A DNA stretch of 32,000 nt from an uncultured Clostridia bacterium (GCA_944387565.1 CALXFJ010000001.1:1-32000), one strand, 5' to 3'; positions 9,017-32,000 are shown, numbered from the stretch's first letter. Numbers and translations: made by a program. The notes: generated from the sequence alone by a model not told the origin.

Positions 9017-9092
9017 GGGCTATTAGCTCAGGTGGTAGAGCACTTGACTTTTAATCAAGTTGTCCCGCGTTCGAGTCGCGGATAGCTCACCA
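9017..9092 (+). tRNA. tRNA-Lys (anticodon UUU)
   Basis: 76-nt cloverleaf. Acceptor GGGCTAT/ATAGCTC, anticodon arm CTTGA-CTTTTAA-TCAAG, T-loop TTCGAGT, encoded CCA. Confidence 0.93.
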
Positions 9093-9136
9093 AAAGAACT
9101 AAATAATTTAAAAGTTATTTAGTTCTTTGTATTTAA

Positions 9137-9211
9137 GGCCCCGTGGTCAAGCGGTTAAGACATCGCCCTTTCACGGCGGAGACATGGGTTCGATTCCCGT
9201 CGGGGTCACCA
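9137..9211 (+). tRNA. tRNA-Glu (anticodon UUC)
   Basis: 75 nt. Acceptor GGCCCCG/CGGGGTC, anticodon loop CTTTCAC, T-loop TTCGATT, encoded CCA. Confidence 0.92.
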
Positions 9212-9228
9212 AATTTAATTAAATAGTT

Positions 9229-9305
9229 GCCACTTTAGCTCAGTTGGCCAGAGCATCGCACTTGTAATGCGAGGGTCATCCGTTCGAATCGGATAAGTGG
9301 CTCCA
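9229..9305 (+). tRNA. tRNA-Thr (anticodon UGU)
   Basis: 77 nt. Acceptor GCCACTT/AAGTGGC, anticodon arm TCGCA-CTTGTAA-TGCGA, T-loop TTCGAAT, encoded CCA. Confidence 0.93.
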
Positions 9306-9354
9306 ATAAAAGGTCATTAGTTTCGAGATATCTCTTAATTATTGGCTTTTTTAT
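9254..9354 (+). repeat. direct repeat R1a: tRNA-Thr positions ~26-77 plus ~48 nt of 3' flank (attL-like)
   Basis: Near-identical to 13024-13125, with about 3 substitutions and 1 T indel, all outside the tRNA part. Confidence 0.9.
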
Positions 9355-9359
9355 TTACG

Positions 9360-9456
9360 AAAAAACAGAGTAGGCGCAACTTCTACTCTGACGACTGTTA
9401 TGTATTGCTCACATTAGTCTTTGTTTGTCTTTTCATTTTGCATTTGTTGAGGTTGT
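9360..9456. repeat. repeat R2a: orphan copy of a small-ORF 3' end plus its minus-strand terminator
   Basis: About 93% identical to 10175-10271 (6 mismatches by eye). In this copy an in-frame TGA sits immediately upstream, so only the tail survives. Confidence 0.85.
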
Positions 9457-9895: not shown

Positions 9896-10010
9896 TAAAT
9901 AAAATTAAAAGAGATTTTGAAAGAAAAATTCCCACAAAATTCCCAAAACACAAACTGAAATGTTTTTAAATAAACCTAATTAAATTTCTTTAAACTATTT
10001 TAAAATTTTT
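9896..10010. repeat. repeat R3a (~115 bp), orphan copy of the upstream region of the minus-strand islet operon
   Basis: Highly similar to 12826-12943. On the minus strand it contains tandem GGGAATTTT-GT-GGGAATTTTT. Confidence 0.85.
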
Positions 10011-10058
10011 TTCATTACCTTGAGATTTTTATTATAATTATGGATTTTAAAATTGAAT

Positions 10059-10094: not shown

Positions 10095-10169
10095 CAAAAT
10101 AAATGTGTTTGAAAGTAGCTAAGATTCAAGCATAGTCGTATGTGTATCGCAACTGCACATACTTTTTTT
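10095..10169 (+). ncRNA. candidate ~75-nt sRNA (promoter-to-terminator unit with no ORF)
   Basis: Bounded by the promoter above and a strong intrinsic terminator: 9-bp stem GTATGTGTA/TGCACATAC at 10138-10162, then T7 at 10163-10169. The single-stranded part contains GCTAAGATTCAAG (10118-10130). Confidence 0.35.
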
Positions 10170-10174
10170 ATGCA

Positions 10175-10271
10175 AAAAAACAGAGCAGGCGCAACTCCTA
10201 CTCTGCCGACTATTATGTATTGCTTACATTAGTCTTTGTTTGTCTTTTCATCTTGCATTTGTTGAGGTTGT
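10175..10271. repeat. repeat R2b (functional copy: 3' end of small ORF plus minus-strand terminator)
   Basis: Terminator on the minus strand is CAGAGTAGG-AGTTGCG-CCTGCTCTG followed by T7 (+strand 10174-10205). Confidence 0.85.
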
Positions 10272-12825: not shown

Positions 12826-12943
12826 CAAATATAAAAATTAAAAGAGATTTTGAAGGAAAAATTCCCACAAAATCCCCAAAACACAAACTGAAATGTTTTT
12901 AAATAAACCTAATTAAATTTTTTTAAACTATTTTAAATTTTTG
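12826..12943. repeat. repeat R3b, upstream/promoter region of the islet operon
   Basis: Copy of 9896-10010, lying 120-240 nt upstream of the 11905..12687 gene on the minus strand. Confidence 0.85.
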
Positions 12944-13023
12944 TTAAACACTTAAAATACAAGTGAAAATTTGCTATTATAGTTATATCAATTAATTGAG
13001 AAAAAGAGAGGCTTGTAAAAAAA

Positions 13024-13125
13024 CATCGCACTTGTAATGCGAGGGTCATCCGTTCGAATCGGATAAGTGGCTCCAATAAAAGGTCATTAGTTTTGAGATA
13101 GCTCTTAATTATTGACTTTTTTTAT
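13024..13125 (+). repeat. direct repeat R1b: displaced 3' 52 nt of tRNA-Thr (13024-13077) plus flank (attR-like pseudo-tRNA)
   Basis: CATCGCACTTGTAATGCGAGGGTCATCCGTTCGAATCGGATAAGTGGCTCCA is identical to 9254-9305. No 5' half precedes it. Confidence 0.9.
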
Positions 13126-15351: not shown

Positions 15352-15471
15352 ATATTAAGTAAATGCCAATAATATAGAGATACTCTTAATTATTGGCATT
15401 TTATTTTGTTAAAATTCTGACTAAGTTTTGAATAATTACTATAAACAATAAGATAGATTTATTATCTATCT

Positions 15472-19123: not shown

Positions 19124-19375
19124 TTAAATTCTCTCCTTATTTATCTTTTGCTGCTACAATTATAATATTAAATTCTACAATGTTCAAGTGTTTTTTTTGA
19201 AATTTTTATTACTTTTATATTACAATATTGTTACAAAGTGGTAAAAACTTTATATATGCAATAAATTTAGCATTTTACAAGATAAAAAAAGATTAAAGAA
19301 AAAATTAAAAATATTGTCAAAAAAATTACTTTATGGTAAGATAAAAGTGTAAAAGTAAAAATAAGGGGAATGTCT

Positions 19376-21268
19376 ATGAAAGAGAAAGTAGAAGAGGATA
19401 AAAAGAAAGAAGAAGATATAGTGGAAAACAAAGAAAAAACTAATTTGGAAGAAACAAAAGAAGAAAAAGCAAAAAAAGTTTCTAAAAAAGAGAAAAAGGA
19501 AAAGAAACCTAAATTTAAAAAATCAGAAGAAAAGCCTAAAAAACAAGAAAAAGATATGAAAAAAATGGAAGGCAAAAAAAGTAAAAGAAAGTATGCTGTG
19601 ATAGCAGTTTCACTAGGGATTGTTCTACTTGTGGCTCTTTTTATATCTACAATATTTGCTTTAGTAAATATAAACAATGAAAACATTATAAGTGGAGTTT
19701 CGATTTCTGGAATTGATGTATCAGGACTTTCACGAGAAGAAGCTAAAGGAAAATTAGAAGCAGTTTATAATGAGAAAAAGGAAAACGACATTGATTTAGA
19801 ACATAATGAATTTGAGACAACTTTAAGTCCAGAATTAATGGAAGTAAATTATAAAATAGATGAAGCAGTAGAAAGTGCAGTTTCAATTGGTAAAAGTAAA
19901 AATATATTTAAAAATAATTATGATATATTAGGTACTTTAATTGGAAAAAGAAATATACCAGTAGAAATGACTATAAATGAAGAGGCTACAAGACAAACAA
20001 TTGAAGATATGAATGCAAGCTTACCAGATGTATTAATAGATTCTAGCTATTCAATAGAAGATGATGAACTAATAATTACAAAAGGAAAAGCAGGAGTAAA
20101 AATAGATACAGATAATTTATTAAATCAAGTAAAACAAAAATTAAATGATTTAAATGATAATGAAAATTTTATAGAAATACCAGTTGTGAATAAAGAGCCA
20201 GAAGCAATTGATATAGATAAAATACATAGTGAAGTATATAAAGAACCACAGAATGCTTATTATACAAAAGACCCATTTACTGTATATCCAGAAGTAGAAG
20301 GGGTAGACTTTGATGTAGAAGCAGCAAAAGAATTATTAAAAGAAGATAAAGATGAATATGTAATTAAATTAACAATTACAGAGCCAGAAATTACTTTAGA
20401 TGAAATTGGAACAGAGGCTTTCCCAGACCAATTATCAACATTTACAACTAGATATGATGTAAGTGATGTTGATAGGTCAACTAATTTAAGGTTAGCAAGT
20501 GAAAAAATTAATGGAACAGTTTTAAAACCAGGAGAGACATTTTCATATAATAAAACAGTTGGAGCAAGAACTATAGCAGCAGGATATAAAAATGCTAAAG
20601 TTTACGAATCAGGAAAAGTAGTAGATGGTATAGGAGGAGGAATTTGCCAAGTATCATCAACATTATATAATGCAGCTTTACTTGCAAACTTAGAAATAGT
20701 AGAAAGAAGAAATCATCAATTTGTAACTTCATATGTAGGAGCAGGAAGAGATGCTACTGTTGTTTATGGTCAAACAGATTTTAAATTTAAAAATACTAGA
20801 AAATATCCTATAAGAATAGTAGTAACAACAAATGCAGGAATATTAAAAATATCAATATTTGGAATTAAAGAAGAAAACGAATATACATTTAAATTTAACA
20901 CAAAAACAGTTTCATCTATTCCATACACAACTCAGTACATAGAAGATAGCTCATTACCAGCAGGAACAGAAAAAGTCGAACAAAAAGGAGCAAATGGATT
21001 AATAACAGAAACATATATTACAAAAATGCTAGATGGTAAAGTTGTTTCAACTGAATTACTTTCAAGAGACACATATAGTGCTATGACTAGAATTATAAGG
21101 AGAGGAACAAAGAAAACAAGTAGTTCAAATAGTAATGCTACTACAACAACTACTCAAAGTACAAATACAGAAGAAACAACAACTAAGCCAATACAAGAAG
21201 AAGTACAAAAGCCTCAAGGAACGCAACCAACAGAAGAAATGGTAGACACAGAAAATGTAACAGAATAA
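19376..21268 (+). CDS. VanW-family cell-wall protein with G5 domain
   Basis: ATG at 19376 is favoured, 7-8 nt after AAGGGGA; the track ORF starts at 19370. Lys/Glu-rich N-terminus, one TM, VanW core (GGGICQVSSTLYNAALLANLEIVERRNH...GRDATV), G5-like segment (LPAGTEKVEQKGANGL...TRIIRRGT) and a Thr/Ser-rich tail. Confidence 0.85.
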   Translation: MKEKVEEDKKKEEDIVENKEKTNLEETKEEKAKKVSKKEKKEKKPKFKKSEEKPKKQEKDMKKMEGKKSKRKYAVIAVSLGIVLLVALFISTIFALVNINNENIISGVSISGIDVSGLSREEAKGKLEAVYNEKKENDIDLEHNEFETTLSPELMEVNYKIDEAVESAVSIGKSKNIFKNNYDILGTLIGKRNIPVEMTINEEATRQTIEDMNASLPDVLIDSSYSIEDDELIITKGKAGVKIDTDNLLNQVKQKLNDLNDNENFIEIPVVNKEPEAIDIDKIHSEVYKEPQNAYYTKDPFTVYPEVEGVDFDVEAAKELLKEDKDEYVIKLTITEPEITLDEIGTEAFPDQLSTFTTRYDVSDVDRSTNLRLASEKINGTVLKPGETFSYNKTVGARTIAAGYKNAKVYESGKVVDGIGGGICQVSSTLYNAALLANLEIVERRNHQFVTSYVGAGRDATVVYGQTDFKFKNTRKYPIRIVVTTNAGILKISIFGIKEENEYTFKFNTKTVSSIPYTTQYIEDSSLPAGTEKVEQKGANGLITETYITKMLDGKVVSTELLSRDTYSAMTRIIRRGTKKTSSSNSNATTTTTQSTNTEETTTKPIQEEVQKPQGTQPTEEMVDTENVTE

Positions 21269-21276
21269 TTATAAAA

Positions 21277-21315
21277 AGACCAATATTTTAATATTTTTAT
21301 TTTTAATATTGGTCT
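21277..21315 (+). terminator. hairpin after the VanW gene
   Basis: AGACCAATATT ... AATATTGGTCT. Only a weak T-tract follows. Confidence 0.45.
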
Positions 21316-21367
21316 TAATTTATATAATAGGCATAAATTTGATTGTAATATTTAGCATATTAAGGTA

Positions 21368-21396
21368 TTGACATTTAATAAAAAAGATACTATAAT
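21368..21396 (+). promoter_or_regulatory. consensus promoter of the (now split) tRNA-Lys(CUU) gene
   Basis: TTGACA (21368-21373), 17-nt spacer, TATAAT (21391-21396), 18 nt before the tRNA 5' end. Confidence 0.7.
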
Positions 21397-21414
21397 GAAT
21401 AAGGTCTAGAAAAT

Positions 21415-21454
21415 GCGCCATTAGCTCAGTTGGTAGAGCAGCAGACTCTTAATC
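21415..21454 (+). pseudogene. 5' 40 nt of tRNA-Lys(CUU): acceptor 5' strand, D-arm, anticodon stem 5' strand and loop
   Basis: GCGCCATTAGCTCAGTTGGTAGAGCAGCAGACTCTTAATC. What follows (ATACTATGTATAAAAG...) cannot complete a tRNA. Confidence 0.9.
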
Positions 21455-21490
21455 ATACTATGTATAAAAGATAATCATACGTTGTTATAA

Positions 21491-21539
21491 AATCGTGTAA
21501 CTCTTGCAATATAAGAGATACACGATTTATTATTTTTTT
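21491..21539 (+). terminator. intrinsic terminator just inside the left end, insulating int from the tRNA promoter
   Basis: AATCGTGTA-A-CTCTT-GCAATAT-AAGAG-A-TACACGATT followed by TATTATTTTTTT. Confidence 0.65.
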
Positions 21540-21592
21540 AAAGGTCAATCCTATTCCTTTTTAATCTTTATTCGCCTTTTGGGTGTCCTTTG

Positions 21593-21621
21593 TTGACAAT
21601 CATACGTTGTAATTGTATAAT
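21593..21621 (+). promoter_or_regulatory. integrase promoter with an arm-type repeat in its spacer
   Basis: TTGACA (21593-21598), 17-nt spacer, TATAAT (21616-21621). AATCATACGTTG occupies 21598-21609. Confidence 0.6.
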
Positions 21622-21650
21622 TCAAAAAGAGTATTTTGGAGGTATGAAAA

Positions 21651-22736
21651 ATGGCAAATTTAACAAAAAGACCAAGTGAAAGAAAAAAAGAATTAGTAGC
21701 AAAACCAATTGTACTAAAAGGAAAAGGCGAAAGAAATTCAATGAATACTAGAATTTCCGCAGTTCAAAAAGAGTTTTTAGTTGAGCAAGAAGTAAAAGGA
21801 AATTCGACAGATACATTAAGATACTATAAATCGTCTTTCAGAAGAATGAACAAGTTTATTGCACAAAATGAACTACCACAAGAACTTTTGGAAAAGGTAA
21901 AGGAAGATGACGACCTAATCAGTATGGGAGAAAAAATGCCTTTGGGTGTTCTACTTGATAAGGATTTTGAGGTTGACTTTAAAAGACATTTAGAGGAAAG
22001 CGGTTGCAATCCTAGAACTATCAATACATATTTTAGAGCATATCGAGCATTTGCCTATTATTGCATGGACGAGGGTTGGATTCCTGTTAGGAAAATTAGT
22101 ATAAAAACAAGTAAAGCACCAATAAAGCAAGTTTATTCAGAAGAGGAATTGAAAAAACTTTTGAAAAAACCAAAGACCTCAAATTTTACAGAATATAGAA
22201 ATTGGGTTGTGGTAAATTATATGTTGGCAACTGGAAATAGATTAAGTTCAATTGTTGCATTAAATATTGAGGACGTTGACCTAGAAAATGGTTACATAAA
22301 TGTAAATACTCAAAAGAATAAAAGACCTGTTGCAATTCCGCTTGTAAAACAAATAAGAAGAATTTTAAAAGAATATATTACTTTATATAGAAACCTAGAA
22401 GAGGATTCAGACCTAATGGGAACAGACCCATTATTTTGCAATAGATTCGGCGAAAGACTAACAGGCGACGGACTTATAAATGCGATTTCAAAGTATAATA
22501 AAAATCGTGGGGTTGCAAAAACCTCAATTCACTTATTCCGCCATACATTCGCCAAAGATTGGATTTTAAGAGGTGGCGACTTGTTCAGTTTACAAAAAAT
22601 GCTCGGTCACTCATCACTTGATATGGTAAAAAATTATGCGAATCTTTATTCAAGAGATATTAAAGATAAAGCGGAAGAATTTTCATTTTTGTCAAATACT
22701 AGAAGAACAACAGGAAATACATTAAGATTGAAATAA
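21651..22736 (+). CDS. int: tyrosine site-specific recombinase (phage-integrase family)
   Basis: 361 aa, GGAGG RBS. SAM-like N-domain. Catalytic region has ATGNRLSS (Arg), HLFRHTFAKDW (H-x-x-R) and LGHSSLDMVKNYANLY (His, Tyr). Confidence 0.92.
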   Translation: MANLTKRPSERKKELVAKPIVLKGKGERNSMNTRISAVQKEFLVEQEVKGNSTDTLRYYKSSFRRMNKFIAQNELPQELLEKVKEDDDLISMGEKMPLGVLLDKDFEVDFKRHLEESGCNPRTINTYFRAYRAFAYYCMDEGWIPVRKISIKTSKAPIKQVYSEEELKKLLKKPKTSNFTEYRNWVVVNYMLATGNRLSSIVALNIEDVDLENGYINVNTQKNKRPVAIPLVKQIRRILKEYITLYRNLEEDSDLMGTDPLFCNRFGERLTGDGLINAISKYNKNRGVAKTSIHLFRHTFAKDWILRGGDLFSLQKMLGHSSLDMVKNYANLYSRDIKDKAEEFSFLSNTRRTTGNTLRLK

Positions 22737-22814
22737 ATTATGTAAATTTGAGAAAACTATTGACTTGCTATTTCTTTAATGATAAAATAAATATAATTTA
22801 TTTGGAGGTAAAAT

Positions 22815-23462
22815 ATGGAAGAAAAATTACAAGCAAAAAATGTAAGAATAGTTTTATTTTTTAGTCATTTATTAGAATGTACTTCTGTTAAGCTAGCGAA
22901 TTCACTTATAGACGAATTACCAGAATTAGGACAACCAAATATTTTTAATATACCAGCAGAAGCACCAAATGAAGTAAAAATGCAGATGCCTAAAATAATT
23001 TTTAATAATGCAAAACAGATTAATATAACTGTAACAAATGTGAGCATAGATATTAGTATTGATAATGATAATATAGAAATTATTAAAAATAATATAAATA
23101 AAATATATAAAGCATTAAGTGATAATAATGTGCATATACAAGCAATTGGTGTTGTTAGTAGGTATTTATATTTTGATATAAATTTTGAAAAAATAAAAGA
23201 AATATATTATAAAGATGAAGAATTAATGGAAAGTGATTTAATTAATCTGTCTTGGTATAAAAAGAAAGATACAATTAATATTTGGAAAACGTTAAAAACA
23301 GAAGATAAAGATAATGTAAAGAATTTAACTTTAAGTATAGATATTAATAATAAAGGCATAAATAGAATTATAGATATTGGTTATATAAATGAATTTTTAG
23401 ATAACCAAAATATAGAAGTAAATAGTTTTAAAGAAAATTTAGAAAAGAAAATAGGTGATTAG
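22815..23462 (+). CDS. hypothetical protein, first gene of a coupled 3-gene operon
   Basis: 215 aa, GGAGG RBS, no motif recognised with confidence. Its TAG stop is immediately followed by the next ATG. Confidence 0.6.
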   Translation: MEEKLQAKNVRIVLFFSHLLECTSVKLANSLIDELPELGQPNIFNIPAEAPNEVKMQMPKIIFNNAKQINITVTNVSIDISIDNDNIEIIKNNINKIYKALSDNNVHIQAIGVVSRYLYFDINFEKIKEIYYKDEELMESDLINLSWYKKKDTINIWKTLKTEDKDNVKNLTLSIDINNKGINRIIDIGYINEFLDNQNIEVNSFKENLEKKIGD

Positions 23463-23990
23463 ATGAGTACAATGACAATGACAGTACCCTTTTTTTGCAT
23501 AGACGTTGATGAAGAACAACAAGATGTTCAAAATAGTAGTATAGCTTTGTCAGATTTTGCATATACTAAAACTAATACTGCAAATATAATAAATAAATAT
23601 CAAACTAAATTAATAGATATTATATGTGAGTTATTAAAAAATGGAGAATCATATGAACATAGTAGTGTTAATAATAAACTTTTAGGAGAATTTATGGAAA
23701 AATATTATTATACTAAAAGAAAAATTTACTATAATAATACTACTTTTGAATTTAATATAGATTTCTTTTATGAAATTTATAAAGATATATCAGAAGACCT
23801 TTATATAGCTCAAAATGAATTTTTTGATATCTATGGATATGGAGATACATTATTTGAAGCAGAACAAGACCTATATAATACTTTATATGAATTATGGGAA
23901 ATTTATGCAGAAGAAGATGACAATAATTTAGATAATAAGGCAAAAGCTATAAAAGAAAAATTAATAACTTATATAAGGAAGTTAGATTAA
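23463..23990 (+). CDS. hypothetical protein with C-terminal HicB-like (antitoxin-fold) segment
   Basis: 175 aa. LYIAQNEFFDIYGYGDTLFEAEQDLYNTLYELWEIY resembles the HicB N-domain pattern (..vp.l.G..t.GdTleEA..n..ea...w.e). No DNA-binding domain is evident. Confidence 0.4.
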   Translation: MSTMTMTVPFFCIDVDEEQQDVQNSSIALSDFAYTKTNTANIINKYQTKLIDIICELLKNGESYEHSSVNNKLLGEFMEKYYYTKRKIYYNNTTFEFNIDFFYEIYKDISEDLYIAQNEFFDIYGYGDTLFEAEQDLYNTLYELWEIYAEEDDNNLDNKAKAIKEKLITYIRKLD

Positions 23991-24283
23991 TGTCTTCATT
24001 GAATGTTAAAGAGATAAATGCAAAGTTACAAAAAAAGGGTTTTAAAAAAGAAAATACCGACCACAATTGCTTTTATTATGTATATAATGGAAAAAAGACA
24101 GGTATATGGACAAAAACAAGTTTTGGTTCTCATAAAGATATAGGAGATAACTTAATTTTGAAAATGGCTAGACAAGTTAGATTAAAAAAACCAGAATTTA
24201 TGAGATTAATTGAATGTACTTTATCTGCAGAAGATTATAAAAAATTGTTAATACAGAATGGAGAAATAGAAGAGGAAAATTGA
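23990..24283 (+). CDS. HicA-like small basic protein (putative mRNA-interferase toxin fold)
   Basis: 97 aa. Its start overlaps the upstream stop (TAATG). VKEINAKLQKKGFKKENTDHNCFYY...FGSHKDIGDNLILKMARQVRL parallels the HicA layout (..L.k.Gf....gsH......vp.H..kdl..g.l..ilkqagl). Confidence 0.4.
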   Translation: MSSLNVKEINAKLQKKGFKKENTDHNCFYYVYNGKKTGIWTKTSFGSHKDIGDNLILKMARQVRLKKPEFMRLIECTLSAEDYKKLLIQNGEIEEEN

Positions 24284-24324
24284 TTTACAATTTTTCTCTT
24301 TTTCAAGTTATAGGAAATTGCAAA

Positions 24325-24358
24325 AATCCAATAGCAAAATATTGTTTGCTATTGGATT
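24325..24358. terminator. hairpin between convergent genes
   Basis: AATCCAATAGCAAA-ATATTG-TTTGCTATTGGATT, a 14-bp perfect stem. The T-tract is on the minus-strand side. Confidence 0.6.
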
Positions 24359-24412
24359 AAGAAGTATACCATAAAAAGAATATACAACCAACTGGAAATA
24401 TATGTATATAAT

Positions 24413-24787
24413 TTAATTATCAAATTTGTAAACAATGCCTCTAGGGCTTTTGTAATTAACTGGATACATAGTACCAGTATGGCATTTTTCACAACTGAAT
24501 GTAGGCAGAAAATCAGAACCGCCAAACTGTGAGTCTAGTGAATCTACAATGTTTTTAGGAATATATTCTGTGCAACCACAATTCTTGCATTTAAATTGAA
24601 CACCTTCTAAAATACAAGAATTAGATGAAGGGATGCCAAATATATCTTCCAAATCTTCATTAAGGAAATAATCCATATCCAACAATTCATCATCTGACAT
24701 TTTAGAAACATCTTTTCTAGAATATCCAATAGGTGGATTGTCCATATATTTTTTTCTAAGTTTATCAACTTTATTCAAAATAATCAC
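24413..24787 (-). CDS. hypothetical zinc-ribbon protein
   Basis: 124 aa. CxxC...CxxC (FKCKNCGCTEY ... FSCEKCHTG). Lies directly downstream of the IS91-like transposase. Confidence 0.5.
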   Translation of the reverse strand: MIILNKVDKLRKKYMDNPPIGYSRKDVSKMSDDELLDMDYFLNEDLEDIFGIPSSNSCILEGVQFKCKNCGCTEYIPKNIVDSLDSQFGGSDFLPTFSCEKCHTGTMYPVNYKSPRGIVYKFDN

Positions 24788-24810
24788 CTCACGATATGGA
24801 TATTATACAA

Positions 24811-26184
24811 TCAAGAGGAATCTTTTGCAACAACTAATTCAGAGAAAAACATAGTCTGATTGCAAAAAGGGCAAATTAAAGGGTCATAGTGAAAATATAA
24901 CTGAATACGCATACGCCAATTTGCAAGAATTTTTTTAGTTTTAATAGAAGCATCAGACAATTTTTTAATTAATTTATCAAAGTGAGCACATTTATGAGAG
25001 GAATATAAACCAGCATAACGTAGTATTTTAAAATTTTTATCAGGAATATGAATAATAAGGCGTTTCATCAAATCATAAACATGAACTTTTTCAACAACAT
25101 ACATATCATCTTCATGACGTTGATAATAGAAAACAACATAAGTACCATCATAATAAAGAATGCGAGATTGAGCCATAGCAGGTCTATTAAAATATCTAAG
25201 AAGATATTTAATAGCACCATCAGGATTACCTTCAAAAGGTTTAGCTCTAACATAGAAGCCATTATCATAAGATTGATAAAGAAGATTTACGAGAGCTTTA
25301 AAAACATTAAAATCTTTGGAAGATAAAGTAGTTTTTAGATAATCTTTCATTGATTTAAGAAGACAATATTGAAAAGATTTTCTAAAACCTTCATAATCAA
25401 AATGAGTAAGGTTAATCCAAATATCATCAGAAGGGCAATTTTTAATATTAGAAGAAGCACCTTCAGTAACAAGGCAATGAATATGAGGATTCCACTTTAA
25501 GTCTCTACCAAAAGTATGAAGAACAAGGACAATACCTGGGATAAGTTTTTTTCTAGGAGCACGTTTTTTAAAGAAAAATTTAATACAATTTTCACAAGAT
25601 TTAAAAAGAAGATTAAGCAAATTACGGTCTTTAAGAAAGTAAATACGAAGTTGTTCAGGGATAGTAAATACAACATGTCTATGTTCACATTTAATAAGTT
25701 TAGAAGTAATTTCTAAAGCCCTATCCATTTGATATTTAATAGCACAAGTATTGCAGAATCTGGACTTACAAGTAAAAGGAACACAATAAGTTCTGTGACA
25801 ATCAGGACATTCATAGACTGCATGACCCATAGAAGGATTTTGACAGGAAATCATTTTGTTAATTTCATCAATAACAACAGGTCTGATATTAAGAGAATGA
25901 TTATCAATAAGAAAAGAGTCAAAATTATCAGAGAAAATCTGTTGAAAAGTATAAGAATCAGCTCTTTTAAAATTAAATTCAGAAGGAGCAAATTCAAAAG
26001 CACCTAATCCCATATGAGAATAAAGGTGTTCAAAATGTTCAATTTCTTCAACGGTTGAAGCAATATTAGAATGGTCTACTTGAAATTGAGGATTAGCTTT
26101 TCTAAATTCTTCAATAGAGTTGTTTTCATTATTTATTATTCTATATAATTCTTCATTTGATAAAGGTTGCAATATAATCACCAA
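24811..26184 (-). CDS. IS91-family (HUH, Y2) rolling-circle transposase
   Basis: Zn-binding N-domain (YECPDCHRTYCVPFTCKSRFCNTC). HUH region (WNPHIHCLVTEG). Y2 region (IKYLLRYFNRPAMAQSRILYYDGTYVVFYYQ ... RYAGLYSS). The start codon is uncertain (GTG 26184 or TTG 26172). Confidence 0.75.
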   Translation of the reverse strand: MVIILQPLSNEELYRIINNENNSIEEFRKANPQFQVDHSNIASTVEEIEHFEHLYSHMGLGAFEFAPSEFNFKRADSYTFQQIFSDNFDSFLIDNHSLNIRPVVIDEINKMISCQNPSMGHAVYECPDCHRTYCVPFTCKSRFCNTCAIKYQMDRALEITSKLIKCEHRHVVFTIPEQLRIYFLKDRNLLNLLFKSCENCIKFFFKKRAPRKKLIPGIVLVLHTFGRDLKWNPHIHCLVTEGASSNIKNCPSDDIWINLTHFDYEGFRKSFQYCLLKSMKDYLKTTLSSKDFNVFKALVNLLYQSYDNGFYVRAKPFEGNPDGAIKYLLRYFNRPAMAQSRILYYDGTYVVFYYQRHEDDMYVVEKVHVYDLMKRLIIHIPDKNFKILRYAGLYSSHKCAHFDKLIKKLSDASIKTKKILANWRMRIQLYFHYDPLICPFCNQTMFFSELVVAKDSS

Positions 26185-26266
26185 AGAAATTATATATTAA
26201 ATGATGAAAAAGGAAAATATAAAAGGAGCAAAAAAATAAAATAAAAGGCTGAAACTTTAATCAGCC

Positions 26267-26494
26267 TCAAGAGTGCGAGCTATGCTCGCTTTGTTCTTTC
26301 TTATATTCAAATAAATCATTTATGTTGCATTTAAACAATTCGCAAAGTTGTTCAATTTCACTTGTTTTTATATCTTTTACTCTACCAAAATAATAATCAT
26401 TTACTCTTTTATAATTCCAATCAAGATAAATTCGCATTTTATATCTTGAAATTTTATTTTTTTCTAATAAATCCTTTATTTTAAATACTATCAT
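26267..26494 (-). CDS. XRE-family HTH regulator (short form)
   Basis: Start MIVFKIKDLLEKNKISRYKM at 26494 after AGAGG. The longer track ORF would cover a +strand promoter (TTGACA 26530-26535, 17-nt spacer, TATTAT). Terminator AGGCTGA...TCAGCCT at 26243-26264. Confidence 0.6.
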   Translation of the reverse strand: MIVFKIKDLLEKNKISRYKMRIYLDWNYKRVNDYYFGRVKDIKTSEIEQLCELFKCNINDLFEYKKEQSEHSSHS

Positions 26495-26653
26495 TATTTT
26501 TATACCTCTTTTTAGGCTATTATAATTGACAACTATAAAACTTTGTAGTATTATCTTACTTATAGTCATAACTATTATGCACTATACTTTGACTAAATAT
26601 TAAGATATTTTTTGCCTAATACTTTAAACAAAAAAATTTAAGGGGTGTATATA

Positions 26654-26788
26654 ATGCTTTATTCATTGAATCCAGAAGAAAATTTAAAAGTAGTTGCAAT
26701 AATGATTTTACTTATACCTTTTGCAATATTGATTGATTACATTGTTAAAAAGATAAAAGAGGAAAAGGAGAAGAAAAAAAGGGACTAA
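26654..26788 (+). CDS. 44-aa single-TM peptide with highly charged tail
   Basis: Not in the ORF track (under 60 aa). AAGGGG RBS. MLYSLNPEENLKVVAIMILLIPFAILIDYIVKKIKEEKEKKKRD*. Confidence 0.4.
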   Translation: MLYSLNPEENLKVVAIMILLIPFAILIDYIVKKIKEEKEKKKRD

Positions 26789-26794
26789 TTCCCT

Positions 26795-26959
26795 TTATTC
26801 TTCCATATTATCAGTAGAGTATTTAATCATTGCACATACAACCTCATTTAATGATTTTTTACTCTCTTTTGCTATTTTTTCTATAATATGAAAATCTGTT
26901 TCCTCTACTCTTATTGTCATTGGTACTTTTGACGTACCTTTTGGCATTTTAAAACCCAT
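26795..26959 (-). CDS. ribbon-helix-helix (Arc/CopG-like) protein
   Basis: Not in the ORF track (54 aa). AGGTGG RBS. MGFKMPKGTSKVPMTIRVEETDFHIIEKIAKESKKSLNEVVCAMIKYSTDNMEE*, with a beta-strand then two helices. Hairpin AAGGGA-CTAA-TTCCCTT is shared with the 44-aa gene. Confidence 0.5.
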   Translation of the reverse strand: MGFKMPKGTSKVPMTIRVEETDFHIIEKIAKESKKSLNEVVCAMIKYSTDNMEE

Positions 26960-27240
26960 TATATGCACCACCTATCACAAATAAAATGTTTCTATTTTTA
27001 AATTATTTTATAATTTATTGAGAAAATAGTATATTTTATTTTTGTTTCATATTTTGCATTAAAAAGTGTTGCGAAAAATAAAACGTTATGATAGAATCTA
27101 GTCGAAAAATAGAAAGACAGTAGGTAATATGTCAATAGAAAAATAAAAAATTTTTCAAATATTTTTTTGGAAAACATTAAAAAATAGACACACTTAATAA
27201 AACATGCAAAAAATGCACATTGGAATGGTAAAATATGTAA

Positions 27241-28518
27241 TTAGTTTGAGCGATTATCTAATTTGGTTGCAGAGTAAAGTTGATTATGGTGTAGCAAACC
27301 AAAAATTAACCTTACTAGTTTTCGAGCAGAAAGTGCTAAGGCACGCTTATGTGCACCACGGCTCACTTCATTGTATTTGCGAGTATAAAAATCATTAAAT
27401 TCTTTAGAATGGTTTTTAACAGAAGAAACAGCTTCAATTAAATAGTAGCGTAGATATTTGTTTCCTGTCTTAGTCATTCTAGTAGTTTCAGCTTCAAAGT
27501 AACCCGATTGGGTTTTACGCCAAGTTAAACCAGCATATTTAGCTAGAGCATTGTTGTCTTTGAAAAAGTTAATAGAACCAATTTCAGAGATAATGCCAGC
27601 AGCATATACATCACCAATTCCAGGGATTGACTTAAGAATGGTAAATTCATTGTCACAAAGACCTTTAACATTCTTCTCAATAGCTTTATCAATAACTTTA
27701 AGATTATCTTCTAAAGCATTAATAGTATTGAAAGATGAAGAGATAGCAACGTTAATAGGGTCATAAGCAACTTTGTCTAATCTGTAAGAATCACGAGCAA
27801 TTTTCTTAAGAAGTTTAACATTTTCTTGAGGATTAGAAAAACGAGATTTACCTTTCTCCATAATGAAATTAATCATATCTTCATCAGACATATTAACAAT
27901 ATCATCAGGAGTAAAGTCAGCAATAATGGATTTAGATGTATTACCAAATAAATTGCTAAAAGGTTCGTCCTCTTTTTTTGCAATATAAAGAGAACTGAAC
28001 TTTAGATAAATATTGCTCATCATGTAAGCTTTTTCTCTCATAATAGTTTTAACTAAATGAAAACGTTGACGAGTTAAGCGCTGAAGAGCAAACAGTTGAG
28101 ATGCCTTGTATGGTTGTTGGTTTATTCGACCACAACGAGCCATATCAGCTAAAACAAAAGCGTCTTGAGGATCAGTTTTATCCATATCAGAATAAGTTTT
28201 TCTAAAATTGCTAGATTCTTTAGGGTTAATAACAAACACTTTAGAATTAAAATTAAAAAGTGAATTGTTAGAAGCTAAAAAGTTAGCAATATGAAAGCTA
28301 AAAACATTAGTAGATTCCAAGACCATAGTAACATATTTTAAGTCATTTTCTTGAAGAGCATTAAAGATTCTTTCAACAGCGATTACGCTACCAGGTAAGT
28401 CGTTAGTTATAGAAAAATCTAAAATATGTTTACCTTCAAAATTAATGGCACAAAAATAGTTACTGGCAGAGCTAACATCAATGCCTACAAACAAAGTAGA
28501 TAAAACATCTTTATTCAT
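27241..28518 (-). CDS. IS110-family DEDD transposase/recombinase
   Basis: 425 aa. N-terminal RuvC-like DEDD (FVGIDVSS..., VLESTN). C-terminal Transposase_20 region (LKSIPGIGDVYAAGIISEIG...AKYAGLTWRKTQSG...TKTGNKYLRYYL). Confidence 0.9.
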   Translation of the reverse strand: MNKDVLSTLFVGIDVSSASNYFCAINFEGKHILDFSITNDLPGSVIAVERIFNALQENDLKYVTMVLESTNVFSFHIANFLASNNSLFNFNSKVFVINPKESSNFRKTYSDMDKTDPQDAFVLADMARCGRINQQPYKASQLFALQRLTRQRFHLVKTIMREKAYMMSNIYLKFSSLYIAKKEDEPFSNLFGNTSKSIIADFTPDDIVNMSDEDMINFIMEKGKSRFSNPQENVKLLKKIARDSYRLDKVAYDPINVAISSSFNTINALEDNLKVIDKAIEKNVKGLCDNEFTILKSIPGIGDVYAAGIISEIGSINFFKDNNALAKYAGLTWRKTQSGYFEAETTRMTKTGNKYLRYYLIEAVSSVKNHSKEFNDFYTRKYNEVSRGAHKRALALSARKLVRLIFGLLHHNQLYSATKLDNRSN

Positions 28519-28775
28519 AGAATCACCACCTTTCTTGATAGAATAAAGATAAAATAAGGACTATTCCTTAGCAATTAAAAATAAAATCAACCTCGCATAT
28601 AAGCATTCATTCAAATATTGTTAACGTCATTGCTACCTTGACCAATATTTGAAGATGCAGCAGTTGGTAAGAAAATAATTTTTAATGCAAGGCTTCACTC
28701 TTTATAAGCAATACCATAAGGTTTGCAGGGGAAAATAAAGTTTGCCTTATATAATATCTAAAAATATTATACTAA
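28519..28775 (-). ncRNA. candidate IS110 bridge (guide) RNA in the 5' non-coding end
   Basis: Minus-strand -10 TATAAT near 28768-28773. Contains an 11-bp perfect stem TTCAAATATTG/CAATATTTGAA with a 22-nt loop (about 28606-28649), a direct GCAAAC repeat, and no ORF. Confidence 0.35.
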
Positions 28776-28875
28776 AAAATAGTCCAATTAGAAAGGTTAT
28801 AAAAAATATAAAATATGTTTATAAAATTCATATTAAATAAACCTTATAAACATATTATACGAGGTGGAAAAGCAA

Positions 28876-29796
28876 ATGAAAAAGAAAATATTTATAGTTT
28901 TTATTATTATCTTTACAATATTTTTAATAGGGGCATTTAATAACAATTCATATGCTTATACAGATTTATCATCTGGTGAAGTAACGATTGAGGAAATACC
29001 AGACCAAACATATACAGGCAGACCAATAAAACCTAAAATTAGGGTTAAGCACGGTGGAAGTTACTTAACAGAAAATAGAGATTATGCTATTAGAGGTTAC
29101 TTCCAAAACATAAATACTGGGGTTGGAATGGTAGAAATACAGGGTATAGGAAATGATTACAGAGGAACTTTATCTGAAAGTTTTAGAATAAATCCAAAAG
29201 ATATATCATCTTGTTCAATCACTATAAATCCTTATGATTCCACTTATACTGGTAGTCCAATTGAACCAGATATTACAGTAATGGACGGAGGACAAATAAT
29301 TGATAGTGGTTCTCAAACTTATACTATTTCATATAGTGATAATATAAATGTAGGAACGGCGACAGTAACAATAAGAGGTATGGGAAATTATACAGGTTTC
29401 AATAGTGCAACATATTCTATTACCGCTAAACCTATTGATGATAATGAAAATCCTCCAGATGAAAAACCAACAACACCAGATGAAAACCCAGAGAATCCAT
29501 CAGATGAAGAGAATCCAACGACACCAGATGAAAATCCGTCAGATGGAGAAAATTCATCAATAATAGATAATAATTCAAACACTTCATCAGAAGATTTTCA
29601 AAACATAACAACAAATACAAGTTCTAATAATAAAAGCAACAATTCTATTTCAAATAATATAAAAGATAATACTGTATCAAAAACTATTCTACCAAAAGCA
29701 GGTTTAAAGCATGGAATAATTGCAATATCAATTTTAGTATTAGTTATAAGTATAATCTTTTATAAAAGATATACATATTTTAAAGATATAAAATAG
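28876..29796 (+). CDS. sortase-anchored surface protein with two Ig-like repeats and a Pro/Asp/Glu/Asn linker
   Basis: ATG at 28876 after GAGGTGG. Signal peptide KKKIFIVFIIIFTIFLIGAF. Two YTG.PI.P.I.V...G-type repeats. Linker (T)TPDENP is present three times. LPKAG motif, TM and a basic tail (YKRY). Confidence 0.75.
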   Translation: MKKKIFIVFIIIFTIFLIGAFNNNSYAYTDLSSGEVTIEEIPDQTYTGRPIKPKIRVKHGGSYLTENRDYAIRGYFQNINTGVGMVEIQGIGNDYRGTLSESFRINPKDISSCSITINPYDSTYTGSPIEPDITVMDGGQIIDSGSQTYTISYSDNINVGTATVTIRGMGNYTGFNSATYSITAKPIDDNENPPDEKPTTPDENPENPSDEENPTTPDENPSDGENSSIIDNNSNTSSEDFQNITTNTSSNNKSNNSISNNIKDNTVSKTILPKAGLKHGIIAISILVLVISIIFYKRYTYFKDIK

Positions 29797-29834
29797 GATT
29801 CTAACAAGCAATAAAAAATATTGCTTGTTTTATT

Positions 29835-30017
29835 TTATACCCCTAAAAAGGAAAGTACGTCATTCTCTGTTTTAAAATCAAATCCAGCAGACTCATAATA
29901 TTGAGTGATTGCCTCTATTTTATCGTCTAGTGTTTCAAATTCTTTTTCATATCCTTTATAAATATTTTTAAAAATATTGTTTATTCTTTCTATTTGTATA
30001 TTAGTTAAATTATTCAT
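29835..30017 (-). CDS. hypothetical small protein (paralog of 30089..30430)
   Basis: Start MNNLTN at 30017 after AAAGGTGG. LTNIQIERINNIFKNIYK and KIEAITQYYESAGFDF align with the 113-aa neighbour. Confidence 0.45.
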   Translation of the reverse strand: MNNLTNIQIERINNIFKNIYKGYEKEFETLDDKIEAITQYYESAGFDFKTENDVLSFLGV

Positions 30018-30088
30018 AATAAAACCACCTTTCAAATTTCTTTGTACTTATTTCGCTCATAAATGGGTCAAATTCCTATTTTTATCAT

Positions 30089-30430
30089 TTAGTTATAAAC
30101 ATACCTATTAAAACGATTTCTTTTCTTATTTCGCCAACTAGAATCATAATAATTAAAAATCAATACATTTCTATTTTCTATCAATTCGTGAATATCATTA
30201 AAAACGAATCCACAAGCCTTATATAATAACTCTAATGCTTGAATTTTATGTTCTATTTCAAAGGCACTATTAAATAAAGCATTTATTTTTTCGGCACTTT
30301 CGCCATTAAGTGCAAAATCAATATACAAACTAGAATCACATTCAAGCAATAGATTTTTTTTGTCCTCTATTTTGAAAATGCTATTAAATAGCATATCTAT
30401 TATTTCTATTTCATAATTTGTCAAATCCAT
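30089..30430 (-). CDS. hypothetical small protein
   Basis: 113 aa. LTNYEIEIIDMLFNSIFK ... KIQALELLYKACGFVF. Basic C-terminal tail. Confidence 0.5.
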   Translation of the reverse strand: MDLTNYEIEIIDMLFNSIFKIEDKKNLLLECDSSLYIDFALNGESAEKINALFNSAFEIEHKIQALELLYKACGFVFNDIHELIENRNVLIFNYYDSSWRNKKRNRFNRYVYN

Positions 30431-30440
30431 AATTAACCCC

Positions 30441-30794
30441 CTATTTTGCTTGTTCTAATAAAGCTAGTATTTGTGGTAGTACACATTGTCTTATTTGATT
30501 ACCATTTTTAAAGTATTTTATCATTATAAATTCTTTGATTTTTAGTAAATGTTCTTTATGTATAACATATTTACCATCCTTGTAACAATCTATATACATT
30601 TTTGTAAACCTTTCCATTGTATAATCATTACTTGGTCTAACGTCATATTCAATCTCCATATCTAAATCTAATAATAAAAATGGTGTAATACTTTCAAATT
30701 CTTCCAATGTTAACTTCATTTCTTTCATTTCTCCATTATAAGTAGGAATCCCCAAAATTAACTCATTTCTTTCATTTACTTTTACATTTTTCAT
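30441..30794 (-). CDS. hypothetical protein
   Basis: Start MKNVKV at 30794 after AAAGGTGG. 117 aa, no motif recognised. Confidence 0.5.
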   Translation of the reverse strand: MKNVKVNERNELILGIPTYNGEMKEMKLTLEEFESITPFLLLDLDMEIEYDVRPSNDYTMERFTKMYIDCYKDGKYVIHKEHLLKIKEFIMIKYFKNGNQIRQCVLPQILALLEQAK

Positions 30795-30846
30795 AATAAA
30801 AACCACCTTTCAAAATTTATTTTTTTCTTATCTCTTTGTTGAACTT

Positions 30847-30875
30847 ATTATACTATCTTTAAGACTAAATTTCAA
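30847..30875 (-). promoter_or_regulatory. consensus promoter for the 30794->30089 operon
   Basis: On the minus strand: TTGAAA (30870-30875), 17-nt spacer, TATAAT (30847-30852). Confidence 0.55.
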
Positions 30876-31129
30876 ATTTGGTATGTCTTGTATTGCTACA
30901 ACCACAAGACTTACAGACGATTTTTTAAATGTGATGTGCGTGCTTTTTGCGGTCTTGATTTTTCAAAAAATACGTTTTGAAAGCCTTGTTACACAAGGGA
31001 TTCAAGACCTAAAAAAATTTTTTAAAAAAATTTAAAAAATTTCTATTTTTATGCGGTTTTACTTTTTTGGGAAAGAAGCGGTTAGTAAAAGTTAACCATC
31101 GCAAACGTTGAATAAAAATTGTAAAACTA

Positions 31130-31159
31130 TTGACAAAGTTAATATGTTAGTAGTATAAT
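31130..31159 (+). promoter_or_regulatory. promoter of the element-borne tRNA-Lys
   Basis: TTGACA (31130-31135), 18-nt spacer, TATAAT (31154-31159). Confidence 0.55.
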
Positions 31160-31174
31160 AAAAATCGTCGAAAC

Positions 31175-31250
31175 GGGCTATTAGCTTAGTTGGTAAAGCA
31201 ATCGACTCTTAATCGAAAGACCCCCAGTTCGAGTCTGGGATAGCCCACCA
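31175..31250 (+). tRNA. tRNA-Lys (anticodon CUU), complete, carried inside the integrative element
   Basis: 76 nt. Acceptor GGGCTAT/ATAGCCC, D-arm GCTT/AAGC, anticodon arm ATCGA-CTCTTAA-TCGAA, T-arm CCCAG-TTCGAGT-CTGGG, encoded CCA. The sequence differs from the split host gene. Confidence 0.9.
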
Positions 31251-31255
31251 ATAGG

Positions 31256-31290
31256 CACTTTCAAGACTTTTTGAAAGTGTTTATTTTTTT
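31256..31290 (+). terminator. intrinsic terminator of the element-borne tRNA
   Basis: CACTTTCAA-GACTTT-TTGAAAGTG followed by a T-rich run. Confidence 0.7.
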
Positions 31291-31488
31291 GAACTTGACA
31301 AAAGCGGTATGATTCTCTTATAATAAGGTCTAGATTGAATTATACAATTACTAAAAAGTGAAAAAATAAAAAAGGGGAAATCATACGTTGCCTTTCATTA
31401 GATTTATTTATCAGTAAAAAGCGAACCGGTGCAAACCGTTGCAAGAGTAAGAGAAAAGACCAAAGACGTTGATTTTATTAGTCCGTAT

Positions 31489-31535
31489 GACTCTTAATCT
31501 GATGGTCGGAGGTTCGATCCCTCTATGGCGCACCA
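31489..31535 (+). pseudogene. 3' part of the split tRNA-Lys(CUU): 11-bp repeat plus anticodon stem 3' strand, variable loop, T-arm, acceptor 3' strand, CCA
   Basis: GACTCTTAATC-TGATGGTCGGAGGTTCGATCCCTCTATGGCGCACCA. ATGGCGC pairs with GCGCCAT at 21415-21421. Confidence 0.9.
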
Positions 31536-31565
31536 TAAAGCAGTTATTTTATATAAAGTGAAAAA

Positions 31566-31594
31566 AGTATGTGGCTTAAAATCACATACTTTTT
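31566..31594 (+). terminator. intrinsic terminator of the original tRNA-Lys gene
   Basis: AGTATGTG-GCTTAAAAT-CACATACT followed by TTTT. Confidence 0.65.
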
Positions 31595-31712
31595 ATAAAA
31601 TATAATAATATTTATATAGAAATGAAAAATTTAAAAAGGAAAGAGTAAAAATATTGACAAAAAGCCCGAAAAATACTAAAATAATAGTGTTGGAGAGAAA
31701 GAAAAAGGGGTG

Positions 31713-32000
31713 ATGGATTTGCTAAGAATATATTACACTGATATGGAAACAAATGAATTCCAAGAAATTAAAGAATTTAAAAGAGGAGCCTGGATTAATT
31801 TAGTAAACCCATCGGAAAGTGAAATTCGTAAAGTATGTGAAAGTGTAAATATAGAAGAAGAATTTATAAGAGATGCATTGGACTTTGAAGAAAAAGCCAG
31901 AATTGATGAAGAGGAAGATGATAATACCAAATTATTTGTTGTAGATGTACCGATAATTGAAAAAGGAGAAGAAGGAGAAGCGGTATATAATACAATGCCA
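31713..32000 (+). CDS. corA: CorA-family magnesium/cobalt transporter, N-terminal part (runs off the window)
   Basis: Open frame from ATG 31713 after AAAGGGG, absent from the ORF track because it has no stop. MDLLRIYYTDMETNEFQEIKEFKRGAWINLVNPSESEIRKVCESVNIEEEFIRDALDFEEKARIDEEEDD...VVDVPI. Promoter is TTGACA (31654-31659), 17-nt spacer, TAAAAT. Confidence 0.7.
   Translation, partial: MDLLRIYYTDMETNEFQEIKEFKRGAWINLVNPSESEIRKVCESVNIEEEFIRDALDFEEKARIDEEEDDNTKLFVVDVPIIEKGEEGEAVYNTMP

Follow-up and report, generated by a model that had tools for sequence, protein, structure and literature searches.

A small integrative element of uncultured Clostridia that splits a host tRNA-Lys(CUU) gene and carries a complete tRNA-Lys(CUU) of its own

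Genomic islands and prophages that target tRNA genes in the classical manner were reportedly described by Reiter in 1989 and by Williams in 2002. We analysed a 32,000-nucleotide stretch of DNA from an uncultured Clostridia bacterium (GCA_944387565.1, CALXFJ010000001.1:1-32000; the whole stretch is called the window hereafter), in which an integrase-bearing element of 10,045 bp lies in the anticodon loop of a tRNA-Lys(CUU) gene, leaves this gene split and brings a complete tRNA-Lys(CUU) gene of its own. Classical tRNA-targeting elements, as described in the Islander database paper (PMC4383910), hold the displaced 3' portion of the tRNA gene in their attachment site, attP, and the gene is restored.

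The closest described counterpart is the tRNA-dependent lysogeny of mycobacteriophages and actinobacteriophages (Guerrero-Bustamante & Hatfull, mBio 2024, PMC10865867), represented by Fionnbharth/K4, LeBron/L, Gaia/X and Gordonia CQ2/DL. In these phages a tyrosine integrase acts on a core of 8-17 bp that overlaps a tRNA gene, mostly tRNA-Lys(UUU), and the gene is not reconstructed; a phage tRNA of the same isotype, expressed from its own promoter, is needed for viable integration, and integration vectors need the phage tRNA as well. The phage tRNA serves to survive integration, not to prevent loss, and regenerating and non-regenerating phages are found with integrases that are 78% identical. 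In the prophage Lj965 of Lactobacillus johnsonii (Firmicutes) and in Mesorhizobium-phage-like prophages of Sinorhizobium meliloti, the tRNA is likewise reported not to be rebuilt, and a prophage tRNA could complement it (PMC10865867, PMC3714127, PMC12429752).

In the window, the first 40 and the last 36 nt of the host tRNA-Lys(CUU) gene lie 10,045 nt apart (coordinates in Table 1), and when the two halves are joined, ARAGORN calls a 76-nt tRNA-Lys(CUU) with 7/7 acceptor pairs. The 5' half comprises the 5' strand of the acceptor stem, the D arm, the 5' strand of the anticodon stem and the loop with 2 further nt. Both junctions carry an exact copy of an 11-nt core, GACTCTTAATC, which occurs exactly three times in the window, at 21444, at 31489 and at 31204, the last copy being inside the tRNA gene of the element (the cargo tRNA); the core is invariant across all related loci. 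Neither junction yields a tRNA. With attL (left junction) or attR (right junction) taken singly, ARAGORN called nothing at 21415 or 31500, the split halves had no Rfam tRNA match at the gathering score, and reconstruction at either junction was likewise absent in the related loci. The left junction reads on as ATACTATG... and the right one is entered from ...TCCGTAT, neither of which gives a tRNA call; the four tRNAs called by ARAGORN in the window are Lys(UUU), Glu and Thr at 9017-9305 and the cargo Lys(CUU). A classical attP, with a tRNA 3' portion that regenerates the gene, is not what this element has. An earlier note on this DNA had given the halves these positions and this distance, had joined them into a tRNA-Lys(CUU), had found 11 nt duplicated at the junctions and had seen that neither junction completes a tRNA, all of which was borne out.

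A scan of metagenomes with the joined tRNA recovered the empty site. At L009 (related loci are numbered with an L), the sequence matches window positions 19323-21454 at 98.2% and 31489-32000 at 100%, the two flank matches overlap by exactly the 11-nt core, and an intact tRNA-Lys(CUU) gene (69 bits in Rfam) follows a promoter identical to that of the split gene. L009 represents the unoccupied site in a conspecific strain, and L010 and L011 show it in relatives that are further removed; the earlier note had suggested looking for such a site in related genomes. The same junctions recur in no fewer than six independent assemblies (L001, L002, L004, L006, L007 and L024), whose samples and hosts differ. 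All together, the region is a real, recent and site-specific insertion into the anticodon loop.

The cargo tRNA-Lys(CUU) lies 238 bp from the right core in the window copy and scores as well in Rfam as the intact host tRNA (70.1 vs 69 bits). Its anticodon loop is the same as that of the host tRNA, with no escape change. The cargo tRNA is 76/76 identical in L006 and L007, whose integrases differ by 15%, and two further valid sequence types occur, one in L004 and one in L023-L025; each of the three types has 7/7 acceptor pairs. In all complete copies of the element family, a tRNA-Lys(CUU) gene with a promoter and a terminator is found about 240 bp from the right core.

We found 28 integrase homologues (76-100% identity), all on contigs from metagenomes or metagenome-assembled genomes (MAGs). 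Two MAGs, L001 (Bacillota) and L002 (Clostridia), contain the same element in the same tRNA gene; the element is 98-99% identical but the flanking genes are only 75-80% identical to those of the window, so the element has moved between species. Elements with integrases 82-86% identical (L004-L008 and L023-L030) have the same layout and split four further variants of the host tRNA-Lys(CUU). The order in the family is host 5' half, core, integrase gene (int), small genes, complete tRNA-Lys(CUU), about 240 bp, core and host 3' half, and all loci with an upstream flank (L004-L007, L026) have a VanW-family gene next to the element on that side. In 6/6 loci checked in full, all joined host pairs and all cargo genes are valid tRNA-Lys(CUU); the further members of the family are L023-L030. 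The host tRNA comes in five variants: four have the acceptor 5' strands GCGCCAT, GGGTTAT, GGCTCAT and GGGTGAT, the fifth (L023) is seen from its 3' half only, and what the five have in common is only the core and tRNA-conserved surroundings. When 3' halves were swapped among the three best-characterised host types, just 5-6 of the 7 acceptor pairs were left, and elements were observed in all three of these types.

One relative is built differently. In L018, whose integrase is 77% identical, int lies directly downstream of a whole tRNA-Lys(CUU) gene at a different host locus. The arm and the int promoter align with those of the window element, and a 36-nt tRNA 3' half is found where the window element has AT-rich sequence with an extra AATCATACGTTG repeat. 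L018 reads as the classical regenerating design, and regenerating and non-regenerating designs therefore coexist in one integrase lineage. More distant integrases (45-50% identical) are located beside a whole tRNA-Ser(GGA) gene or inside a phage. The tRNA-Ser(GGA) arrangement is seen in L012 (9820-10000) and in L013 and L014 (9518-10000), where three AAATCGTGT(A) repeats lie between the tRNA gene and int, an arm-type motif unlike the AATCATAC of the Lys family. A separate observation concerns L020 (206-245 and 389-428; also L021 and L022), where tandem truncated tRNA-Lys(CUU) 5' halves lie upstream of a 78%-identical integrase gene. A consensus promoter precedes the first half, which resembles the host promoter and 5' half of the window at 84%; for the second, which continues into the element arm, no promoter is obvious, and about 135 bp of unmatched sequence separate the two. 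These tandem halves may be the footprint of an earlier insertion, or of an insertion into a former cargo tRNA.

Several features are shared with tRNA-dependent lysogeny: a tyrosine integrase gene by attP, a chromosomal site (attB) in a tRNA gene with a core of 11 bp (8-17 bp in the phages), no functional tRNA at attL or attR, a cognate element tRNA with its own promoter, and close integrase relatives (77% identical here, 78% there) with a classical regenerating attP. The four sequence-level features of tRNA-dependent lysogeny are all present, and by these the locus appears to be a non-phage element that works like it. The hosts, however, are uncultured Clostridia/Bacillota of 26% GC (guanine plus cytosine) and not Actinobacteria, the isoacceptor is CUU whereas it is mostly UUU in the phages, and the tRNA gene is directly beside attP instead of elsewhere in the genome. 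Moreover, the carrier measures 7.4-7.8 kb and has neither IMG/VR relatives nor any gene recognisable as a virion, lysis or packaging gene, and the term lysogeny is therefore not strictly applicable. Indeed, no capsid, tail, terminase, lysis or packaging family was found in L002 (an intact copy) or in the window copy, and the attP junction CGTATGACTCTTAATCATAC, the integrase relatives and the cargo tRNA sequence had zero matches in IMG/VR. The element is not a prophage. Relaxase, coupling-protein and replication-initiator families were not detected either, and in a DNA search of phage and plasmid collections with the intact copy, the sole match was a small recombinase gene (186 aa). Lj965 and the S. 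meliloti prophages, compared by description only, are full-size prophages, whereas the element here has no phage genes. The necessity of the tRNA, shown experimentally for the phages of PMC10865867, is here a prediction from the sequence.

The pairing of an insertion with a compensating tRNA, separately promoted and terminated, which the earlier note had proposed, stands: it is conserved across the family and matches an experimentally proven strategy (PMC10865867). The note had treated the design as unprecedented, which it is not, the principle itself having been published in 2024. New here are the Clostridia hosts, the CUU isoacceptor and the 7.4-7.8 kb element without phage genes. The strategy of splitting a tRNA gene and bringing a replacement, described for actinobacteriophages and tRNA-Lys(UUU), would here extend to uncultured Clostridia of low GC, to the CUU isoacceptor and, beyond phages, to a small non-phage element. 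Like classical islands, the element has its integrase gene by the tRNA-proximal junction, a probable anticodon-loop crossover flanked by a symmetric stem, and direct repeats as bounds; unlike them, it neither carries the tRNA 3' portion in attP nor restores the gene, and a classical example, the tRNA-Thr islet, is found in the same window. Island finders that rely on a regenerated tRNA and a displaced fragment will miss such elements.

We consider it probable that integration splits the host gene, that the cargo tRNA replaces it in trans and that excision restores it. The tyrosine integrase would recombine the attP core, GTATGA-CTCTTAA-TCATAC, with the anticodon stem-loop of the chromosomal tRNA-Lys(CUU). 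As attP shares only GACTCTTAATC with its target and holds no tRNA 3' portion, integration would leave two dead halves, and the loss would be compensated in trans by the cargo tRNA-Lys(CUU) with its consensus promoter and terminator. Excision between the two cores would restore the host gene exactly; the excised circle would have the order tRNA - attP - int, a compact module of possible use as a cassette for integration in Clostridia. Observed are the insertion with its exact boundaries, its spread over divergent hosts and an intact, conserved cargo tRNA gene; expression and charging of the cargo tRNA and its necessity for the host are predicted. With a whole gene supplied, no hybrid tRNA composed of a 5' half from the host and a 3' half from the element would have to fold, and one attP could then serve hosts whose tRNA-Lys(CUU) differ outside the anticodon loop. 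Independence from hybrid-tRNA compatibility is a plausible benefit, in the form of a host-range advantage. The family offers a natural comparison for it, with a 77% identical regenerating relative, five host tRNA variants and three cargo types, and it lends support to the view that an anticodon-loop integrase accompanied by a whole tRNA no longer needs a compatible hybrid and so gains in host range.

The earlier note had also held that the element would be costly to lose. This was not upheld for excision, because core-to-core recombination restores the host gene exactly as it is at L009, and an addiction reading was rejected on the same ground. A cost of loss could hold only for a deletion that removes the cargo tRNA without excision.

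The int gene starts 196 nt beyond the left core, in line with the earlier note, which had it just inside the left junction, and is intact in the window copy save for the last dozen or so residues. In the attP core predicted from the joined ends, a perfect inverted repeat encloses the 7-nt anticodon loop, in imitation of the attB anticodon stem. Because of this symmetry and of the behaviour of anticodon-loop integrases, for which Williams in 2002 is reportedly the background, strand exchange probably takes place within the 7-nt loop. In the left arm, AATCATACGTTG repeats are found at 21473-21484 and 21598-21609, and between the host tRNA promoter and int the sequence shows a strong hairpin (21490-21528), also formed in RNA folds, whose T run extends to about 21539. 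The int promoter (21593-21621) has one AATCATACGTTG repeat in its spacer. This layout is kept in L001, L004 and L006, and L018, of the classical design, shares it from about alignment column 100 on. At the opposite end, an outward-facing promoter, P_out, is oriented to attR and, once the element is a circle, would read through attP to int; it is conserved in L001, L004, L006, L023 and L024. Four promoters match the consensus 12/12, namely those before the 5' half, int and the cargo tRNA, and P_out; the promoters of the 5' half and of the cargo tRNA are of the sigma70 type. The motif AATCATAC(GTTG) occurs in the arms three times in direct and once in inverted orientation, and once as the right half of the core, and the spacers of the int promoter and of P_out contain one copy each; P_out, motifs and hairpin are kept in diverged elements.

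Two further relationships link the arms. A 17-nt sequence in the right arm (31335-31351) is an inverted repeat of the int -10 region (21609-21625) and connects the P_out transcript start with that region. In addition, the 5' strand of the left-arm hairpin (21480-21516) has its complement in a right-arm segment at about 31429-31468, and such complementarity is present, with different sequences, in each of four diverged elements. Compared with dinucleotide shuffles, the energy of the arm duplex gave p values of 0.02, <0.002, 0.10 and 0.08 in the four elements, the region having been picked post hoc, and minimum-free-energy folds retained the terminator in the window, L001 and L004 and replaced it in L006 only. 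The 17-nt repeat and the arm complementarity are possibly an operator pair or an RNA switch spanning attP. In the circle only, the left-arm terminator may be overcome by the right arm as an antiterminator, which would make int expression specific to the excised state; antitermination across attP is a lead, for which the statistics are suggestive.

State-dependent transcription of int has been described in ICEKp1, ICEclc and ICEEc1 (Liu et al., NAR 2026, PMC13023037). As in these elements, the host tRNA promoter is upstream of int in the integrated state, the int leader has a terminator-like stem-loop, and an outward promoter at the far end is predicted to reach int only after circularisation. 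Unlike in that model, int here also has a consensus promoter of its own, and the pairing of the right arm with the left-arm terminator is outside the published model. We also observed TAAGGTCTAGA after the -10 box of both the host tRNA promoter (21400-21410; also at L009) and P_out (31324-31334; also in L001 and L002). The two promoters share TATAAT..TAAGGTCTAGA, with a local alignment score of 28 that 6/300 shuffles reached, and the motif is missing in other hosts; their homology was too weak to build on, and the shared TAAGGTCTAGA may be due to chance or to an old exchange between host and element.

Some points weigh against replacement of the split gene by the cargo tRNA. The tRNA-Lys(UUU) that ARAGORN called at 9017-9092 may read AAG, and the disruption is perhaps tolerated without compensation. 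The host may have further tRNA-Lys(CUU) genes beyond the 32-kb window and the short contigs that the analysis covered. L018 is seen over 4.3 kb and may have a cargo tRNA outside this sequence. The circular attP junction was not found in the viral contigs, which were the only ones searched. Last, the window copy, without four conserved core genes, may no longer be able to excise or move.

The alternative that survives best, which we regard as rather unlikely, follows from the first of these points: the disruption is tolerated, and the cargo tRNA is kept because it adds AAG decoding capacity, guards against anticodon nucleases directed at tRNA-Lys, or offers further elements a place to land. Besides the tRNA-Lys(UUU) gene, the codon usage of the host genes in the window speaks for tolerance, AAG being the minor Lys codon with a share of 16%. 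The same usage, with AAG at about 15 per 1000 codons, also shows a demand for the tRNA and in this respect speaks for replacement. However, the cargo anticodon is always that of the split gene, in every complete member and in three independent sequence types, and the nearest relative with a tRNA 3' half in attP rebuilds the gene instead. An anti-defence role was raised in the discussion of PMC10865867, but the cargo anticodon loop is identical to that of the host. As for a landing site, the cargo tRNA has the same 11-nt core, and the five attB variants in use differ freely outside it, but among the complete copies no element is inserted in the cargo tRNA.

We hold as unlikely a further reading, in which the family drives turnover of the host tRNA-Lys(CUU), a copy decaying in place, as the window copy has done, while its cargo tRNA becomes the working gene, or in which the right arm is the antiterminator considered above. 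With turnover, the cargo tRNA, sharing the 11-nt core, may become the landing site of the next element, and the tandem truncated 5' halves of L020-L022 may be the footprint of such a cycle. It is very improbable that the split tRNA still functions, with a 5' half transcribed from the host promoter and a 3' half from P_out that pair through trailer and leader complementarity, as in Nanoarchaeum. Each half does have a consensus promoter upstream and a terminator downstream, and the complementarity of the four diverged elements lies after the 5' half and before the 3' half, but its blocks are about 45 nt off the junctions, no bulge-helix-bulge is apparent at the anticodon loop, each half RNA would include its own copy of the core, pairing in cis on the circular form explains the complementarity more simply, and the conserved cargo tRNA would be superfluous. 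The archaeal splicing endonuclease pathway is not known from bacteria, and a tRNA assembled in trans was rejected as a candidate. An assembly artefact, in which both junctions are chimeric joins without a real insertion, has practically no chance: nothing was found in its support, and the identical junctions of the independent assemblies and the exact empty site with its 11-nt overlap refute it, which settles the misassembly that the earlier note had allowed for.

Table 1. Positions in the window of the split host tRNA-Lys(CUU) gene and of the features of the inserted element.
Feature	Position	Strand	Evidence
Host promoter of split tRNA-Lys(CUU), TTGACA-17-TATAAT	21368..21396	+	12/12 consensus match
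Host tRNA-Lys(CUU) 5' half, 40 nt	21415..21454	+	ARAGORN after joining; identical to intact gene of L009
attL copy of 11-nt common core GACTCTTAATC	21444..21454	+	Exact repeat
Left (P') arm of element	21455..21650	+	Repeats, promoter match (int promoter 12/12 consensus), RNA folds
Tyrosine integrase (int), 361 aa	21651..22736	+	Pfam PF00589 (Phage_integrase) E 7.5e-29; SAM-like N domain; PHROG integrase
Window-specific segment, 3.55 kb	22737..26289		Homology break vs L001/L002; Pfam
Cro/C1-type helix-turn-helix (HTH) regulator	26267..26569	-	Pfam HTH_26 E 4e-10; conserved in L001, L002, L006
IS110-family insertion sequence, transposase 27241-28518	27117..28861	-	Pfam DEDD_Tnp_IS110, Transposase_20
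Cargo gene, secreted or surface protein, 310 aa	28864..29796	+	Open reading frame (ORF); 99-100% identical in L001, L002
Promoter of cargo tRNA	31130..31159	+	12/12 consensus; hexamers invariant in L001, L004, L006
Cargo tRNA-Lys(CUU), complete, CCA encoded	31175..31250	+	ARAGORN; Rfam RF00005 70.1 bits
Intrinsic terminator of cargo tRNA, 16-pair hairpin and T run	31250..31285	+	Conserved
Outward-facing promoter P_out, inverted AATCATAC motif (31307-31314) in spacer	31295..31324	+	12/12 consensus
Right (P) arm, AATCATACGTTG repeat at 31379-31390	31325..31488	+	
attR copy of 11-nt core GACTCTTAATC	31489..31499	+	Sequence
Host tRNA-Lys(CUU) 3' half, 36 nt	31500..31535	+	ARAGORN after joining; L009
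Host hairpin and T run 3' of tRNA 3' half	~31562-31596	+	Read from sequence

Intact relatives of the window copy measure 7.4-7.8 kb, and L002 (7,622 bp) was taken as the reference. Its genes encode the integrase, an HTH protein of 65 aa, two proteins of 99 and 330 aa, the larger of which begins with a winged-helix-like part, a tyrosine recombinase of 186 aa that consists of the catalytic domain only, the Cro/C1 HTH regulator, a 58-aa protein and the 310-aa surface protein, together with a few small ORFs; in L023-L027 the small recombinase is swapped for a serine resolvase. The 330-aa protein has 21 homologues, all unnamed and restricted to the family. Its AlphaFold model is of low confidence (pLDDT, the predicted local distance difference score, 58.5), and Foldseek returned only generic winged-helix matches (E > 0.3); a role in replication is a guess.

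In the window copy, the segment at 22737-26289 stands in place of the genes for the 65-aa HTH, 99-aa and 330-aa proteins and the 186-aa recombinase. By tblastn these four core genes have no homologue in the window, and L001, L004 and L006 have them. The segment contains an IS91-family transposase gene (Y2_Tnp + Zn_Tnp_IS91; 24811-26184, minus strand) with four ORFs of no assigned family beside it, and its breakpoint falls in the last codons of int. The IS110-family sequence lies between the gene for the 58-aa protein and that for the surface protein; it is missing from L001 and L002 (98-99% identical), where its flanks are contiguous, and is by this comparison a secondary insertion. The 310-aa protein had no Pfam or PHROG match. 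As translated, it has an N-terminal signal-like segment, a Pro/Asp/Glu-rich region, PDE-rich motifs that recur, and, at the C terminus, an LPKAG motif with a hydrophobic tail and basic residues behind it, resembling a sortase anchor. Set against its relatives, the window copy is a decayed derivative, with four core genes replaced and two insertion sequences gained; both cores and the cargo tRNA are intact.

Elsewhere in the window, the tRNA-Thr(UGU) islet follows the classical design, as the earlier note had stated. ORFs inside the islet matched no integrase family. It is bounded by a 99-nt direct repeat (97% identical; 9254-9352 and 13024-13122, spacing 3,770 bp), which consists of the last 52 nt of tRNA-Thr and 47 nt downstream. 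A third, partial copy of the downstream part is located at 15383-15423, and internal repeats pair 9901-10012 with 12834-12945 and 9348-9456 with 10163-10271.

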